Shown here: piece by piece, positions 48,110 through 56,174 of the stretch
Layout: every line of letters starts with the position of its first letter
Position numbering within the stretch: the first letter of the stretch is position 1
NCBI RefSeq assembly: GCF_055900595.2
Contig: NZ_CM148325.1
DNA: 64,000 nucleotides
Reading direction: 5' to 3' (one strand)
Notes under the pieces: generated by a model
Told to the model about the DNA's origin: nothing
The model's input: the letters and a program-made list of their open reading frames with translations, nothing else
Databases searched by the model: none
Translations under genes and position numbers: made by a program

Positions 48110-48421
48110 TATTAATTATATTCACCTGTCTGATGTACGAAATATCCGATAGTGTATGATTAACATATCCAAGGACAAGAAACTGATAAAGATTGGATAA
48201 ATACCCATAGTGCAAAAATCCGATATGGATCGTCAACGATTGCTATCCGTTACTTTCCCCTAGAGAAAAGAACGTCCTCAACTGAAATTCGGGGTATAGT
48301 AGAACCTTATGTAATATTTTGTAATTTTTTGCTTTTTTATGTAAAAACCAAAAGCAAATCATTCTCATTATCTCTTGCGTTTGTTTATCTTCTCTCTGAT
48401 TAATATAATCGGAGAGAAGAT

Positions 48422-50509
48422 ATGCGAGTAACCACTCTGGCTTCAGTAGCCATCCCTTGTCTCGGGTTTTCAGTCAGCAGTATGGCTGCGGAAGATGTGA
48501 TGGTAGTCACGGCGTCTGGCTATGAAAAAAAATTAACCAGTGCAGCTGCGAGTGTTTCAGTGATCAGCCAGGAGGATTTGCGATCCAGCCAGTATCATGA
48601 TCTGGGGGAGGCACTGAGATCCGTAGAGGGGGTGGATGTTGAAAGCGGTACGGGTAAAACAGGTGGGCTGGAAATCAGCATCCGCGGAATGCCTGCCAGT
48701 TATACGCTGATACTGATCGATGGTGTCCGTCAGGGCGGGAGCAGTGACGTAACCCCAAACGGTTATGCTGCCATGAATACGGGTTTTATGCCACCTCTGG
48801 CCGCCATCGAACGTATTGAGATTATCAGGGGCCCCATGTCCACTCTGTACGGCTCTGATGCCATGGGGGGCGTGGTGAATATCATCACCAAAAAGAATGC
48901 AGACAAATGGCGCTCTTCGGTTAATGCCGGGCTGAACCTGCAGGAAAGTAACAAATGGGGGAACAGCAGCCAGTTTAATTTCTGGAGCAGCGGTCCCCTT
49001 GTGGATGATTCACTCAGCCTTCAGGTACGTGGCAGCACACAGCAGCGTCAGGGCTCATCGGTCACATCACTGAGCGACACCTCAGCTACGCGTATCCCTT
49101 ATCCCACGGAATCACAGAATTATAATGCAGGTGGTCGTCTTGACTGGAAAGCGACGGACAAGGATGTACTCTGGATTGATATGGATATCGCCCGGCAGCG
49201 TTATGATAACCGAGATGGCCAGCTGGGCAGTCTGACGGGCGGTTATGATCGCACCCTGCGCTATGAGCGTAATAAAATTTCAGCAGGCTATGATCATACA
49301 TTCACCTTCGGAGCCTGGAAGTCATCCCTGAACTGGAATGAGACGGAAAATAAAGGCCGTCAGCTTGTACGTAGCGTACTGCAGCGTGATAAATGGGGGC
49401 TTGCCGGCCAGCCGAGGGAGCTTAAGGAGTCGAATCTTATCCTGAGCTCATTACTGTTTGCACCTCTGGGGGAATCACACAAGGTTACCGTCGGTGGTGA
49501 GTATCAGAACTCCTCCATGAAAGACGGGGTTGTTCTCGCCAGTACTGGTGAAACCTTCCGTCAGAAAAGCTGGTCGGCATTTGTTGAGGATGAGTGGTAT
49601 ATCACGGATGCATTTGCACTGACTGCGGGTAGCCGCTATGAACGCTATGAGGTGTTCGGAGGACACTTCAGTCCCCGGGCATATATGGTCTGGGATGTGA
49701 CTGATGCGTGGACGCTGAAAGGTGGGGTGACCACGGGATATAAGGCGCCCAGCATGGGGCAGTTACATAAGGGGATCAGCGGTGTGTCCGGTCAGGGGCG
49801 TACGAATCTTCTCGGTAACCCGGACCTGAAGCCGGAGGAGAGTGTCAGTTATGAAGCGGGCGTGTATTACGATAATCATGCCGGTCTGAACGCCAATATC
49901 ACGGGCTTTATGACAGAATTCTCCAACAAGATCGTATCTTATTCCATTGATGATAATACCCGCAGCTACACAAACAGCGGAAAGGCTAGGACTCAGGGCG
50001 TGGAATTTGCCGGCACACTGCCTCTGTTGTCAGAGGATGTGACTCTGTCTCTGAATTATACCTGGACGCAGAGTGAACAACGGGATGGGGATAATAAAGG
50101 TGCACCACTGAGTTACACCCCTGAGCATATGGTGAATGCGAAACTGAACTGGCAGATTACTGAAGAGGTGACATCATGGCTGGGTGCCCGTTACCGCGGG
50201 AAAACGCCACGTTTCACCCAGAATTATTCGTCACTCTCAGCTGTACAGAAGAAAGTGTATGATGAGAAAGGTGAATATCTGAAAGCCTGGACGGTACTGG
50301 ATGCGGGCATGTCGTGGAAAGTGACGGATGCACTGATGCTGAATGCAGCGGTGAATAATGTGCTTAACAAGGATTACAGTGACGTAAGTCTGTATCGTGC
50401 CGGCAGTGGTACGCTTTATGCGGGTGATTACTTCCAGACGGGGGCATCGACAACGGGTTATGTGATACCTGAGAGAAATTACTGGATGTCGCTGAACTAT
50501 CAGTTCTGA
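48422..50509 (+). CDS. iha: Iha (IrgA-homologue adhesin), TonB-dependent catecholate-siderophore-receptor-type outer-membrane protein
   Basis: 695-aa ORF, signal peptide, plug and 22-strand barrel features, C-terminal ...YQF; sequence recognised as Iha. Confidence 0.85.
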   Translation: MRVTTLASVAIPCLGFSVSSMAAEDVMVVTASGYEKKLTSAAASVSVISQEDLRSSQYHDLGEALRSVEGVDVESGTGKTGGLEISIRGMPASYTLILIDGVRQGGSSDVTPNGYAAMNTGFMPPLAAIERIEIIRGPMSTLYGSDAMGGVVNIITKKNADKWRSSVNAGLNLQESNKWGNSSQFNFWSSGPLVDDSLSLQVRGSTQQRQGSSVTSLSDTSATRIPYPTESQNYNAGGRLDWKATDKDVLWIDMDIARQRYDNRDGQLGSLTGGYDRTLRYERNKISAGYDHTFTFGAWKSSLNWNETENKGRQLVRSVLQRDKWGLAGQPRELKESNLILSSLLFAPLGESHKVTVGGEYQNSSMKDGVVLASTGETFRQKSWSAFVEDEWYITDAFALTAGSRYERYEVFGGHFSPRAYMVWDVTDAWTLKGGVTTGYKAPSMGQLHKGISGVSGQGRTNLLGNPDLKPEESVSYEAGVYYDNHAGLNANITGFMTEFSNKIVSYSIDDNTRSYTNSGKARTQGVEFAGTLPLLSEDVTLSLNYTWTQSEQRDGDNKGAPLSYTPEHMVNAKLNWQITEEVTSWLGARYRGKTPRFTQNYSSLSAVQKKVYDEKGEYLKAWTVLDAGMSWKVTDALMLNAAVNNVLNKDYSDVSLYRAGSGTLYAGDYFQTGASTTGYVIPERNYWMSLNYQF

Positions 50510-50995
50510 TAACAACAAACCCGATATAACGCATTATAATACGTAAAGATGCTGCCTCTGTCACCTGAGGGCAGTGGCAGCAACACACGATGCAGGTGTT
50601 TGATCACCAGTGACCCGCCGTTTACTCCTTTAGTATGGCATACTTCTGTTGTCACCTGTGACCAGGCGCGCGACTCTGTAAACATCCGGATGTATGCGTT
50701 CTTCTGACAGTTAATATTACCGGCAGGTAGTTGACGATGTGTGGGCTTGTGACCGCATCCGGGTAATAAAGAAATAATCCGCCAGCGGCTTTTATTCTTA
50801 TGGGCAGTAATTAAATACATCGCCATGTGGGTAAATATAAGTGACGGAATGAGAGTAACAAGTGATGCTGGAATTAAGATTTTGCTTTTTGCAGTGATAG
50901 CCAGAGCCTTTTACAGAAATGTGGTATGAGGTGCATTTTTTACGCTCACATTATTGTTTTATTATCGGCGTCAACCAGTGATCAGGAGGTGCAAC

Positions 50996-51247
50996 ATGCG
51001 TATATGTGTTTTTGGTTACAAAACATGTCCTTCAGTACACCGGATCATGCATCATGCGACAAATCTCCGGGATGAAACAGGGGCAGATGTCCTCTTTATT
51101 GATGCTGAGAAACATGGTATCAGTCTGAAGGTAATGTCTGAGCGTGCTGGATGTGCAGTTGAAAAATTCCCCTGTGTTTTTGTTGATGACGTCTATCTCG
51201 AACCACTGCCACCGGTGCCGGGACAACCTCATTATACTTATTGTTGA
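50996..51247 (+). CDS. Small thioredoxin-fold-like protein (CxxS-type), possibly ICE-associated
   Basis: ATG at 50996 preceded by AGGAGG; MRICVFGYKTCPSVHRIM... resembles glutaredoxin-like N-terminal strand and active-site region; assignment tentative. Confidence 0.3.
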   Translation: MRICVFGYKTCPSVHRIMHHATNLRDETGADVLFIDAEKHGISLKVMSERAGCAVEKFPCVFVDDVYLEPLPPVPGQPHYTYC

Positions 51248-51442
51248 AAATCACCACTTGGTATGAATCAGTTCCCCGGCTTTGTGAAAGGCCGGGTATA
51301 ATCACAGACTGTCTGTTATGCTTGGCAGATACACTTCCCCGGATCCCACCGTAATTTTTTAATCCCGTTTTTAATTTATTGCTGATAAATGAGCGCTTTC
51401 TTCGCACGCTGTCAGTCAGATAATATCTGACTGAGGTGTACG

Positions 51443-51838
51443 ATGTACCGGATTTTCTGTTCCCTGTTTTTCCTGCCGCTGGCAGCGTCTGCCGGCACAA
51501 CAATTTATACCGATTCTCAGCATCTTCCCGTTAATCCTCCTGATGGTGTCAGGGTGGTTCTGCTGGATGCGCCTGAGCAGCTTCAGAGCCGCTTTTGGGG
51601 CCTGTTGCCTGCTGATGCGGGTGAGGCTGAATCGGTGGTCAGGGTACGTATGAAGTCTCCCGAATGGCAGACGATGCAGGCGGAACTGGCCGGTCATTAC
51701 CGCGATGTGGCACATGCCTAGTCGCTGGGCGTGAAGAAATACCCTGCCGTGGTGTTTGATGACAGTGAGGTGGTTTACGGCACCATGGATGTGGTGATGG
51801 CCGGGAAAATCCGTGCTGAGGGAGGAGTGCAGCCATGA
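51443..51838 (+). pseudogene. Integrating-conjugative-element protein (PFL_4709/TIGR03757-like) with internal stop
   Basis: Signal peptide then ...TTIYTDSQHLPVNPPDGVRVVLLDAPEQLQ...; in-frame TAG at 51719, after which the same frame continues ...KYPAVVFDDSEVVYGTMDVV... Confidence 0.5.
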
Positions 51839-52809
51839 TGTCCCTGAAATGTCGTCTGCGTACCGGCGTGCTGTTACTGAGTGTGGCATCACTGCCCCTG
51901 GCGTCTGTATCACTGAACACCGCCAGCATTATCGCCAGTACTGCGGCACCGGACTATATCAGCTGGCGTGTCAGCGGGATTTGTTACTGGCTTTACTGCA
52001 GCGCGTCTGGCTGTACGGTCAGAATTTCCGTGAAGGTGACACATTTCATCCCGGAAGTGGTTATTTCCACCTATACGGCACCGGGTGGTAATCCCTGGAA
52101 AGAGATGTCGCTGGTCAGCCGGACCGCAGGTGGCCCGGAGAATGCCATCACTGACGGCCTGTCCGGGCTGAGTGCCGGCGGGGGAAATCCGGCGGATATG
52201 AAAATACAGGGGAAGCGCCGTTCAGCAATTCGTTTCAAATACGCAGATGCGCTGGGTCATCCGGCCACACAGCTTATCGGCGGGATGGTACCCGGATTCA
52301 GCTGTGATTCACCGGTGACACCGGCCATGGCCTATTTCCTCAGTACCCTGGACAGCATCGTCTAGCGAACGGGATTACCTGAATCCCTGTATCCAGAGGC
52401 ACAGGTTCCCGGCAAACGCGAGATTGGCAGCTAGGCCGATAAAAACATGTGGGGGAGCGTTTATCACCGGAGTGGTTTTGTGATGCAGAGCGATGATGAC
52501 CGGGCCGCGGCGGTGGGGGCTCAGCGGGTGGCCGACATTATCACGCGGATGGGGGAGTCGCATGTCTACAGGGAGGTTAAGGGCGTGAAACGTGACGGCT
52601 ACTGGCCCCCGGAGGCGGTGGAGGAAAACACCGGCACCCGCAATCACAAATGGCAGCGACTGACGCCGTCAGTGTCGCGTTCCTGTGCCGTTTTCCCGGA
52701 TGGTGAACACCAGGCGGCGGAGAACGGTAATGCAGCCTTTGCACTGTGGCAGCCTTACAGCTGCTTCGAAAAGCGCGGGCAGCGATTCCTTGGCAGTACG
52801 AATTTTTAA
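51835..52809 (+). pseudogene. ICE TraU-like protein (PFL_4710/TIGR03756-like), frameshifted
   Basis: Two ORF-track pieces, 51835..52365 and 52447..52809, consecutive with the flanking ICE genes. Confidence 0.45.
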
Positions 52810-52815
52810 GGAACC

Positions 52816-53590
52816 ATGATGATGAAGATGAAAACAGGTATGGTGGCACTGAGTGTGATGCTGTACTGCAGTATTCCGGCGATGGCTGATCTTCTTTCCC
52901 TGCCGAAACTGAATGACAGCACGTTCGGTTACGGGAAATCCGTGGATGGCGCCGTATCCGACAAACTGTTCTATACGCTGGGTGGCGGCTCGGTGATCTC
53001 ACAGTTGGCCACGCGCAGCAACATGCAGAAGCTGGGTATGGACCTGGGCTGGAGCAGCGATCTGATGTGCGGCAACTTTGACCTGAAGACCACGGTGGGT
53101 AATCATCTTAACGGATTGACCGACGGCTTTAAAAATCTGATGGGGGATGTGATTTAGGGGGCGACCGGCGCCGCTGCCAGTCTGCCGGCGATGGTGATAC
53201 AGCGTGCCAACCCCGGCCTGTACGACATGATCACCAACGGTGTGCTGCAGGCGAATGTGGCTTTCGACAAGGCGTAACTGAACTGCCAGAACATGGCAAA
53301 ACGGATGATGGACTTTTCTGATCGCAGCAAATGGACGCAGGCCAGCGATGCTGGAAGAGTACAAGAAGGTGGTGAACAGCGGTGACGGTGATGCGGTGAA
53401 AGGGGACGAGGCCGGACGTCAGGCCACCGGGAAGGAAGGTAAGAAATGGATTGGCGGGCAGCAGCGCGGCGGGGCAGGTCAGCCCGCCATCCGGCCGGTG
53501 CATGATCTGACAGCGGCTGGGTTTAACATGATGAACAGTCTGCCCGTGACCAGTACGGGAGGTTACGATAAAGCCGACAGTGCAGGATGT
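52816..53590 (+). pseudogene. ICE protein (PFL_4711/TIGR03755-like), interrupted and 3'-truncated
   Basis: Signal peptide ORF 52816..53157, continuing after a stop; ends at an IS integrase-core fragment. Confidence 0.4.
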
Positions 53591-53940
53591 GATGTTAGGA
53601 GCGATAGAAAAACGCTTTGGCGATAAAGGACCGGAACGAGCAATCCAGTGGCGGACGGATAACGGTTCGGCTTATACGGCTCATGAAACACGGCAATTCG
53701 CCAGAGAGTTGAATCTGGAGCCCTGCACGACGGCAGTCAGTAGCCCTCAGAGCAATAGAATGGCAGAAAGGTTCGTGAAAACGTGAATGAAGACTACATC
53801 GCGTTCATGCCGAAACTGAATGTAATAACGGCATTGCATAACCTTGCAGAGGCGTTCGAGCATTACAATGAAAACCATCCGCATAGTGCGTTAGGTTATC
53901 TCTCACCACGGGAATATCGACGTCAGCGGATAACGTTAAC
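53580..53940 (+). pseudogene. Transposase integrase-core (rve) C-terminal fragment
   Basis: ...[45 protein letters not shown]..., continuing with stops. Confidence 0.4.
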
Positions 53941-54298
53941 TTAAGATACAATAGCAGTCTGATATTGAGGGGGCAAGAACATCCGAACCACACCAGCCTG
54001 TGACTTATACCCTGTCTCTACGACCCAGAGAGTATTATTCTTAATAATCTCATAATATATACACAATAGGAAGTATCTATTAACAAAATAGAGAACATCG
54101 TTTTTACTATCAAATAGTTGCACTGTATTAATATGATTAAACTTTAAAAAAGTTTCAGGCTGATCAGGAGGAGTTATGAAAAAAATAAATATTTTAATTC
54201 TGTGTCTGTTTTCTGGAGCGTCGTGGGCAAGTGACGTAGATAATGTTAAGTGCTGATGAATCCCCTAATGATTTTTATCAAAATCATTAAGTTAAGGT

Positions 54299-54367
54299 AG
54301 ATACACATCTTGTCATATGATCAAATGGTTTCGCCAAAAATCAATAATCAGACAACAAAATGTGCGA
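54299..54367 (-). ncRNA. IS10 antisense RNA-OUT (inferred by position, not verified)
   Basis: Same positional inference as for copy 1; this copy carries substitutions at outside-end positions 24-27 and 47. Confidence 0.3.
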
Positions 54368-55568
54368 ACTCGATATTTTACACGACTCTCTTTACCAATT
54401 CTGCCCCGAATTACACTTAAAACGACTCAACAGCTTAACGTTGGCTTGCCACGCCTTACTTGACTGTAAAACTCTCACTCTTACCGAACTTGGCCGTAAC
54501 CTGCCAACCAAAGCGAGAACAAAACATAACATCAAACGAATCGACCGATTGTTAGGTAATCGTCACCTCCACAAAGAGCGACTCGCTGTATACCGTTGGC
54601 ATGCTAGCTTTATCTGTTCGGGCAATACGATGCCCATTGTACTTGTTGACTGGTCTGATATCCGTGAGCAAAAACGGCTTATGGTATTGCGAGCTTCAGT
54701 CGCACTACACGGTCGTTCTGTTACTCTTTATGAGAAAGCGTTCCCGCTTTCAGAGCAATGTTCAAAGAAAGCTCATGACCAATTTCTAGCCGACCTTGCG
54801 AGCATTCTACCGAGTAACACCACACCGCTCATTGTCAGTGATGCTGGCTTTAAAGTGCCATGGTATAAATCCGTTGAGAAGCTGGGTTGGTACTGGTTAA
54901 GTCGAGTAAGAGGAAAAGTACAATATGCAGACCTAGGAGCGGAAAACTGGAAACCTATCAGCAACTTACATGATATGTCATCTAGTCACTCAAAGACTTT
55001 AGGCTATAAGAGGCTGACTAAAAGCAATCCAATCTCATGCCAAATTCTATTGTATAAATCTCGCTCTAAAGGCCGAAAAAATCAGCGCTCGACACGGACT
55101 CATTGTCACCACCCGTCACCTAAAATCTACTCAGCGTCGGCAAAGGAGCCATGGATTCTAGCAACTAACTTACCTGTTGAAATTCGAACACCCAAACAAC
55201 TTGTTAATATCTATTCGAAGCGAATGCAGATTGAAGAAACCTTCCGAGACTTGAAAAGTCCTGCCTACGGACTAGGCCTACGCCATAGCCGAACGAGCAG
55301 CTCAGAGCGTTTTGATATCATGCTGCTAATCGCCCTGATGCTTCAACTAACATGTTGGCTTGCGGGCGTTCATGCTCAGAAACAAGGTTGGGACAAGCAC
55401 TTCCAGGCTAACACAGTCAGAAATCGAAACGTACTCTCAACAGTTCGCTTAGGCATGGAAGTTTTGCGGCATTCTGGCTACACAATAACAAGGGAAGACT
55501 CACTCGTGGCTGCAACCCTGCTTACTCAAAATCTATTCACACATGGTTACGTTTTGGGGAAATTATGA
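54360..55568 (+). CDS. IS10 transposase
   Basis: 402-aa ORF identical in translation to 4125..5333. Confidence 0.95.
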   Translation: MCELDILHDSLYQFCPELHLKRLNSLTLACHALLDCKTLTLTELGRNLPTKARTKHNIKRIDRLLGNRHLHKERLAVYRWHASFICSGNTMPIVLVDWSDIREQKRLMVLRASVALHGRSVTLYEKAFPLSEQCSKKAHDQFLADLASILPSNTTPLIVSDAGFKVPWYKSVEKLGWYWLSRVRGKVQYADLGAENWKPISNLHDMSSSHSKTLGYKRLTKSNPISCQILLYKSRSKGRKNQRSTRTHCHHPSPKIYSASAKEPWILATNLPVEIRTPKQLVNIYSKRMQIEETFRDLKSPAYGLGLRHSRTSSSERFDIMLLIALMLQLTCWLAGVHAQKQGWDKHFQANTVRNRNVLSTVRLGMEVLRHSGYTITREDSLVAATLLTQNLFTHGYVLGKL

Positions 55569-56174
55569 GGGGATCTCTCAGTGTTAAGTGTATTCGGGTA
55601 GATAGTAAAGACATTGAAAGGTTATTCGATCGCTGGAATGAATCATTAAAAACAGGTGATGCCAAGAAGGTTGCTGATAACTATTTAAGTGATGCGATCT
55701 TACTGCCCACAGTATCAAAAAAAATTAGGATTACAGATGCAGAAAGAGTTGACTATTTTGAGCATTTTTTGAAAAAAAAACCTGTTGGAGAAATAAACTT
55801 CAGAACTATTCGCATTGGATGCAATATGGCTCTTGATACAGGGAATTACACGTTTACTTTTGAAGATAAAAAACAAGTTTCAGCACGCTATAGTTTCGCT
55901 TATGAGTGGGATGGAAAGGATTGGAAAATATCATCCCATCATTCATCTGTAGTGCCAACAACATAATATATTGAGCCTGTTTACCATTCTCTGTTAATGC
56001 CTTCTCTTAAAAGTGACCGTCCAAGCGGTCACTGATTACCCATTCTTAATTCAGTGCAGGATTAAAATATATGTGCAAAATAATTTAATTCAGACAGCTT
56101 TTTATTTCACTATGGCTATCCCAGATATCGACGACGGATGAAAAGTGGCTCTTACGCAACCTGGATGGAGATTT

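Follow-up and report, generated by a model that had tools for sequence, protein, structure and literature searches.

GI-type T4SSs have been described in pKLC102, PAPI-1 (Pseudomonas aeruginosa), PFGI-1 (P. fluorescens Pf-5), SPI-7 (Salmonella Typhi), and ICEHin1056 (Juhas et al., PMC2688673, PMC2258188). Two further reports present ICEEc2 as a member of the pKLC102/PAGI-2 family that integrates at tRNA-Phe and carries a type IVb pilus and a shufflon (PMC6761156, PMC11537424). Elements with a GI-type T4SS have a conjugation module defined by the TIGR03755-03757 (PFL_4711-4709) families, and the same families are found at the locus described here; the five elements named first are functional mobile elements in other genera, whereas the genes at this locus appear to be dead. 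ICEEc2 reportedly comes from the avian Escherichia coli strain BEN374 and is said to have been described by Roche et al. in 2010 (J Bacteriol 192:5026). The virulence-associated gene iha is reportedly part of the tellurite/adherence island OI-43/48 of E. coli O157:H7 described by Tarr et al. in 2000. Like the locus studied here, the classical iha islands (OI-43/48, PAI-CFT073-pheV, LAA, and pO113) hold iha with its promoter in an IS-rich mosaic island, but their allele is only ~86% identical at the nucleotide and 90% at the amino acid level, and the O157 example has no ICE genes beside iha. To our knowledge, no pKLC102, PAPI-1, PFGI-1, SPI-7, or ICEHin1056 element carries iha within its T4SS operon, and a literature search, which the original ICEEc2 paper lay outside, found no report linking iha to the ICEEc2/pKLC102 family of integrative and conjugative elements (ICEs).

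Here we analyze a 64,000-nucleotide stretch of contig NZ_CM148325.1 (assembly GCF_055900595.2), hereafter the window, in which iha is followed by a segment (51363-53558) that is probably what is left, in non-functional form, of the mating-pair-formation (type IV secretion) operon of an ICEEc2/pKLC102/PAPI-1/SPI-7-family ICE ('GI-type' or MPF-G class) and that may well have been captured together with iha as a fragment. We document the family membership of its genes, their lesions, their synteny with intact iha-carrying ICEs, the corresponding empty sites, and the variation of the lesions among strains.

The iha cassette (48308-50606; this and all features below lie on the plus strand) comprises a coding sequence (48422-50509), the promoter region, and ~95 bp of 3' flank. 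The intact coding sequence specifies 695 aa, and residues 1-695 align with positions 1-696 of profile NF010012 at 1538.7 bits (cut-off 924), a full-length match by which the predicted product is assigned to the Iha family (siderophore receptor/adhesin). The promoter region contains a Fur-box-like site (48354-48372, 14/19 match); a promoter and terminator scan of 48200-51500 gave matches no more frequent than in shuffled sequence. Compared with the iha gene found inside the ICE of E. coli AR_0089, the window gene is 93.5% identical at the nucleotide level (dS 0.165, dN/dS 0.14), versus ~86% nucleotide and 90.4% amino acid identity (dS 0.61) for the classical iha of O157, O104:H4, and UPEC. Judged by its sequence, iha appears to be intact, under purifying selection, and of the ICE type rather than the classical type. 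The ICE-type lineages are rare, with ~35 records of the ICE-type allele (90-95%) and 59 of the window allele (at least 99%) among 1677 iha-matching records, 1583 of which are classical.

Immediately before the first transfer gene lie the last 80 bp of an ICE intergenic region (51363-51442), which mark the left edge of ICE homology in blastn and alignment comparisons with AR_0089 and E19035. Three pseudogenes follow: a TIGR03757/DUF1525 (PFL_4709-type) gene with one amber codon (51443-51838); a TIGR03756/TraU-like (PFL_4710-type) gene, full length in a single frame, with two ambers (51835-52809); and the 5' fragment of a TIGR03755 (PFL_4711-type) gene that retains ~246 of 472 codons (52819-~53558). 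The raw open reading frames (51443-51721 for TIGR03757, 51835-52365 and 52447-52809 for TIGR03756, 52816-53157 and 53348-53626 for TIGR03755) matched these families with E-values of 5e-17 to 2e-47. They scored below the curated cut-offs because they are fragments only: 62.0 bits against 73.2 for the 92-aa piece of TIGR03757, and 162.1 and 157.4 bits against 188.35 for the two pieces of TIGR03756. We therefore repaired the genes conceptually, by restoring ancestral residues at the stops and removing one inserted base, and scored the translations against the NCBIfam cut-offs. Read through its single amber (with W restored), TIGR03757 reached 120 bits over profile positions 3-108 of 113, and its product matched PF07511 (DUF1525) at 51.3 bits (cut-off 24.1). 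The repaired 324-aa TIGR03756 translation scored 378.2 bits over positions 1-297 of 298, and the 246-aa N-terminal part of TIGR03755 scored 283.5 bits against 270.45, covering only positions 1-201 of 419, with the C-terminal half absent. As far as profile scores can tell, the matches of the repaired translations are far beyond chance, and for TIGR03755 homology is certain although the gene is incomplete. Pfam TraU (PF06834) matches both halves of the TIGR03756 product, a distant likeness to the TraU of the F plasmid; the window gene belongs to an ICE-specific subfamily and would no longer be functional.

The order and spacing of TIGR03757, TIGR03756, and TIGR03755 are the same as in the intact ICEs of AR_0089, E19035, and G8 and in a second ICE of GF4, the closest complete genome. 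The first-pass annotation had read three consecutive ICE-family genes in canonical order at this place and had proposed searches with the TIGR03755-03757 models as the check, with an absence of significant hits counting against it; the profile matches and the order in these four relatives bear the reading out, and the searches clearly did not come back empty. RefSeq/PGAP already tags the first two genes (TIGR03757 and TIGR03756) as ICE pseudogenes with 'internal stop' in the near-identical genome of GF4.

The lesions were read in the frames of AR_0089, whose intact homologue aligns to 51363-53558 at 95% with a single indel. TIGR03757 carries W93 TGG>TAG (51719-51721) at a Dcm CCTGG site. Two ambers interrupt TIGR03756, W177 TGG>TAG (52363-52365) and Q200 CAG>TAG (52432-52434), the latter at a Dcm CCAGG site. 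TIGR03755 has an amber at Q113 (CAG>TAG, 53155-53157), an ochre at Q153 (CAA>TAA, 53275-53277), and an additional A at 53344, the sole indel relative to the intact gene; it breaks off at 53550-53558, around codon 246 of 472, where it gives way to an IS2/ISEc48-like orfB represented by an internal fragment. This IS3-family fragment (53559-53944) corresponds to the C-terminal part of the orfB product (NF006918 positions 172-289 of 301, rve domains). IS matches start at 53550-53558 and ICE similarity ends at ~53555; the fragment forms the right-hand deletion junction of the remnant. The transfer-gene frames, which would be intact in a functional ICE, thus contain five stops, one frameshift, and one truncation. 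The damage is of the kinds first noticed (amber, frameshift, and truncation), with two corrections to the first-pass annotation: the in-frame stops number five, four ambers and one ochre, and the frameshift does not sit in the TraU-like gene, which has two ambers, but in TIGR03755.

An apparently complete ICE of ~78 kb adjoins tRNA-Phe in E. coli AR_0089, extending from ParA through TraI and a tyrosine recombinase. Its genes begin with ParA, an SPI-7-type DnaB, ParB, topoisomerase III, SSB, and PilL, followed by the full TIGR037xx T4SS set, TraG-N, ArdA, the shufflon, the type IVb pilus, TraI, and the tyrosine recombinase; STY4528/STY4534 replication proteins and PFL_4669/PFL_4703 family genes are also encoded. 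The ICEs of AR_0089 and avian pathogenic E. coli E19035, together with ICEEc2, have the same T4SS families in the same order as the window, the likeness of AR_0089 to ICEEc2 being one of description. ICEs of the ICEEc2 type occur in poultry-associated E. coli, as does the window lineage, but the window holds only ~2.2 kb, all pseudogenized, of what is a ~78-kb element in the AR_0089 type. Within the AR_0089 ICE, iha lies inside the T4SS operon, between the conjugative ATPase with a 128-aa ORF and the genes TIGR03757-03756-03755. Related genomes share this position of iha, among them FDN-4, in which TIGR03755 holds an IS21 element. The empty site, that is, the backbone without iha, was found in E19035, G8, and the second ICE of GF4, and comparison of filled and empty sites delimits an insert of 2.3 kb, with 77-92 bp of ICE sequence duplicated at its flanks. 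Neither the exact arrangement of the window nor its TraU allele was found in any intact ICE; the best full-length cluster for the window-type TraU-like protein is 92% identical, and exact look-ups of four repaired TraU-like variants gave no match.

The segment between iha and the transfer genes has a different source. About 757 bp of foreign DNA, from the end of the iha cassette (~50606) to the point where ICE homology resumes (51363), replace ~365 bp of ICE spacer, and the window spacer lacks the direct repeat found on either side of iha in AR_0089. The foreign segment includes a 580-bp module (50741-51319) without counterpart in intact ICEs, which encodes a glutaredoxin-like ORF of 83 aa (50996-51247) with a good ribosome-binding site (AGGAGG). 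The ORF carries CPSV where GrxA has CPYC, scored against GrxA models at E 6e-8 and 32.7 bits (below the cut-off of 84), and had no match in a Pfam search; a thioredoxin/glutaredoxin fold is plausible from its sequence. The module was found at 92.6% nucleotide identity in an unrelated contig context, and a 70% nucleotide homologue annotated as a thioredoxin-domain protein occurs in another island; all homologues found are from E. coli. We rejected the ORF as an ICE gene, as it is missing from four intact ICEs and present in unrelated contexts. The small thioredoxin-fold ORF placed ahead of the transfer genes by the first-pass annotation is thus real but does not belong to the ICE backbone.

Three observations lend some color to a coincidental adjacency, in which a mobile cassette with iha came to lie, independently, next to an unrelated fragment of an ICE in this mosaic island and iha entered an AR_0089-type ICE on another occasion. 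The homology edges of the cassette (left ~48308-48320, right ~50606) are nearly identical in the window, the ICE, and the O157 island; the window spacer differs from that of the ICE; and the dS of iha is twice that of the ICE genes, which are 95.0% identical to AR_0089 at the nucleotide level (dS 0.079). Such a history would require two landings of a rare iha lineage, in the same orientation and directly upstream of the same ICE gene, and no transposase or terminal repeats were found that would delimit the cassette; we regard it as improbable. The preferred reading remains one of common descent from an iha-carrying ICE, which best explains why a rare iha lineage is found beside the same ICE genes with its orientation conserved, and we infer that iha and the remnant share this descent. 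The proposal that iha arrived on, or next to, an ICE is upheld by the synteny in AR_0089 and FDN-4, the empty sister sites, and the divergence of the classical allele.

Divergence from AR_0089 is unequal between iha and the ICE genes (dS 0.165 vs 0.079), and both stretches are mosaic, so that strict co-inheritance from one ancestor is not proven. Leftward, ICE homology stops at the iha cassette edge, and rightward it stops where the repeat of the ICE would begin. An end at the cassette edge, and not at a random point of the ICE, also fits a self-moving iha cassette.

The surroundings of the remnant bear on how much of an ICE was ever present at this locus. When 49 proteins of the AR_0089 ICE were searched against the 64-kb window by tblastn, iha and the three transfer genes were the only matches; no remnant of an ICE integrase, relaxase, coupling protein, or ATPase was detected, and a tRNA scan of the window returned none. 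A functional ICE would be identified by its own tyrosine recombinase, an attachment site at a tRNA, a relaxase, a coupling protein, and an ATPase of the VirB4 type; none of these was detected in the window. Copies of the remnant with at least 99% identity are present in 59 complete genomes, most of them of poultry origin. GF4 is a close relative of the window strain that differs in IS content, and its host island is an IS-riddled, P4-integrase mosaic of ~97 kb between ynjB and ynjA, with aerobactin, sit, sodC, and other cargo as well as many IS fragments and pseudogenes.

Integration of a complete iha-carrying ICE at or within the island, followed by decay in place through IS-mediated deletions, would suit an island filled with IS fragments and pseudogenes, where large deletions are plausible, as well as the IS-associated deletion at the right-hand junction and the evident ability of GF4 to host this ICE family. 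This ICE family, however, resides at tRNA-Phe with its own recombinase, the island of GF4 has a P4-type integrase as its boundary at ynjA, ICE homology ends on the left at the cassette edge, and the window retains no other ICE gene; decay in place is therefore unlikely, though less so than a chance adjacency. With no other ICE gene or tRNA in the window and a P4-integrase island in GF4, capture of a fragment is no less likely, and we infer that it is the more likely of the two. The earlier suggestion of an immobilized ICE is thus retained for the ICE origin of the genes and not for a whole ICE at the present locus, for which the window offers no further ICE gene, tRNA, or integrase. Nor is the rest of the element to be found elsewhere in the genome, as far as GF4 was checked. 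A complete ICE of this family also resides in some carriers of the remnant, among them GF4, CM2, and GF43; in GF4 this second ICE is a separate element without iha that has its own intact copies of the three genes, 93.8% identical to the remnant, and is not the missing remainder. No sign of exchange between the second ICE of GF4 and the remnant was seen.

Substitutions in the three genes, polarized with three intact relatives, indicate relaxed constraint. The window branch accumulated 19 synonymous, 34 nonsynonymous, and 5 nonsense changes (dN/dS ~0.65), compared with a dN/dS of ~0.1 on the E19035 branch (Fisher p 0.0015-0.004), and C>T and G>A changes make up 26 of its 58 changes. Part of this divergence, notably in the first 600 bp, may derive from an unsampled ICE variant and not from decay. 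The lesions were compared across 11 sequences of the lineage, a small and non-random sample in which eight contigs had been chosen for absence of the W93 stop. The ochre, the frameshift, and the IS junction are common to all 11, and the other stops vary. The closed genome VTB97379v keeps CAG at both Q200 and Q113; W93 is still TGG in at least 24 draft contigs, and W177 is TGG in one; an additional amber at Y256 is present in two drafts, and EC332 has an additional 1-bp deletion. TIGR03757 is intact in a sub-lineage. The fixed state of the ochre, frameshift, and junction and the variability of the remaining stops imply that TIGR03755 was disabled first and the other two genes later. From these patterns, the three transfer genes are predicted to be dead and their decay to be continuing.

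Continued function, by amber suppression or in the form of orphan subunits for a co-resident ICE, could draw on the four ambers among five stops, on the sub-lineage with intact TIGR03757, and on the carriers with a complete ICE of the same family, yet TIGR03755 combines an ochre, a frameshift, and the loss of its C-terminal half, dN/dS is elevated, and the co-resident ICE brings its own intact copies; we consider it very improbable indeed. Amber suppression or programmed read-through was rejected on the ochre, the frameshift, and the truncation. The predominance of ambers arises because GC>AT transitions struck CAG and TGG codons, some of them in Dcm hot spots: the W93 and Q200 changes each coincide precisely with the cytosine methylated by Dcm. 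Such sites are reportedly known as classical hot spots for amber mutation from the work of Coulondre and Miller.

Polymorphism within the lineage adds a further pattern. Polymorphism in the remnant is 3-4 times that of iha or the other flanks, and an amber codon is toggled by 5 of its 22 polymorphic substitutions in this small non-random sample, against a neutral expectation of ~3% (P ~0.0005-0.0009). The combinations of lesions are not tree-like, which implicates repeated mutation, recombination, or short conversion tracts derived from a co-resident ICE, and occasional conversion of this kind could contribute to the amber pattern. It is conceivable, if doubtful, that orphan T4SS subunits with signal peptides have been repeatedly silenced by selection, for example for interfering with a co-resident ICE of the same family. 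We record the amber excess as unexplained and not as evidence of selection.

The favored history, capture of a fragment from an iha-carrying ICE, would run as follows. A ~2.3-kb iha cassette would have inserted as cargo in the T4SS operon of an ICE, between the ATPase with its small ORF and TIGR03757. The window would retain this cassette and the next 2.2 kb of ICE DNA, the rest of the element (at least 75 kb) being missing. On the left, ICE sequence ends at the cassette edge; between iha and the remnant, the ICE spacer appears to have been swapped for a segment with the unrelated glutaredoxin-like module; and on the right, a deletion that left a junction with the IS3-family fragment would have halved TIGR03755. 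The fragment probably entered the P4-integrase mosaic island by IS-mediated or illegitimate recombination. Selection on iha presumably explains the persistence of the piece, and the transfer genes would be passengers that gather stops; most of these arose by GC>AT transition, and two lie at hot spots of Dcm 5-methylcytosine.

The remnant belongs to a known ICE family and is unremarkable as a fossil. It offers a small, dated case of erosion in pseudogenes, with classical Dcm amber hot spots among the lesions, and points to no new mechanism. Its value is to mark the provenance of one lineage of virulence-associated iha, which is traced here to cargo within the transfer operon of ICEs of the ICEEc2/pKLC102 type. 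The iha-carrying ICEs are found in poultry-associated and human E. coli, and in the window iha persists on a mosaic island of the chromosome, still joined to a stub of the operon. The locus is thus useful for tracing the movement of virulence and fitness genes from self-transmissible elements to fixed islands.

Across the 11 lineage sequences compared, a non-random sample including eight contigs retrieved for lacking the W93 stop, 23 polymorphic sites fall in the ICE remnant (window 51363-53558), eight in iha and four in the other flanks. At five of the 23 remnant sites an amber codon is toggled, and the combinations of lesions in the remnant fail the four-gamete test. The amber mutations at W93 of the TIGR03757 gene (51717-51721) and at Q200 of the TraU-like TIGR03756 gene (52431-52435) each fall on the methylated cytosine of a Dcm site (CCTGG for W93, CCAGG for Q200), and the two account for two of only seven such sites within the three remnant genes.

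Compared with the ICE-borne iha, the window copy (48422-50509) is about 9% divergent in its central third (49039-49640) and 1-5% at its ends, which suggests either recombination or diversification of surface loops. Two draft assemblies with the same island (L019 and L020) share a 1-bp deletion in iha at window-equivalent position 48525, and no 695-aa gene is called there; therefore, not every carrier maintains iha. Immediately upstream of iha, on the minus strand, is a conserved 94-aa hypothetical ORF (WP_000370415.1; 47825-48109) that gave no match in an NCBIfam search and lies outside the ICE.

In the intact ICE of E. coli AR_0089 (L002), the iha insert occupies positions 17327-19636 and is bracketed by a direct repeat of 77-92 bp with 91% identity (17228-17304 and 19632-19708), which is a copy of the 3' end of WP_000968513, the ICE gene lying upstream. 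This repeat greatly exceeds a transposon target duplication in length, and there is no transposase. A separate, apparently complete ICE of the same family, lacking iha and 93.8% identical to the remnant, is located at 4.24-4.28 Mb in GF4 (NZ_CP172217.1), the closest complete genome to the window; this second element may itself be defective, since the annotation splits its TIGR03747 gene into two ORFs.

Downstream of the remnant, a 1329-bp IS10-like element of the IS4 family (54253-55581), encoding a 402-aa transposase (54360-55568), interrupts a gene of the SgcJ/EcaC family and is absent from GF4 and from the sister strain VTB97379v, which makes the window closely related to GF4 but not GF4 itself; upstream of this element, the window and GF4 show several further IS differences. 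VTB97379v carries an IS3-family element, with a 5-bp overlap at window-equivalent positions 50805-50809, in the stretch that separates iha from the Grx-like ORF; this spacer is thus an active IS target.

The upstream part of the island (window 1-31800) contains the aerobactin genes with iutA, as well as sitABCD, sodC, a group II intron reverse transcriptase and a PAPS-reductase/IbrB-like pair, among which IS fragments are numerous; iucD of the aerobactin set is frameshifted in GF4. The cargo of this region is of plasmid type (ColV-like) and has become chromosomally fixed.
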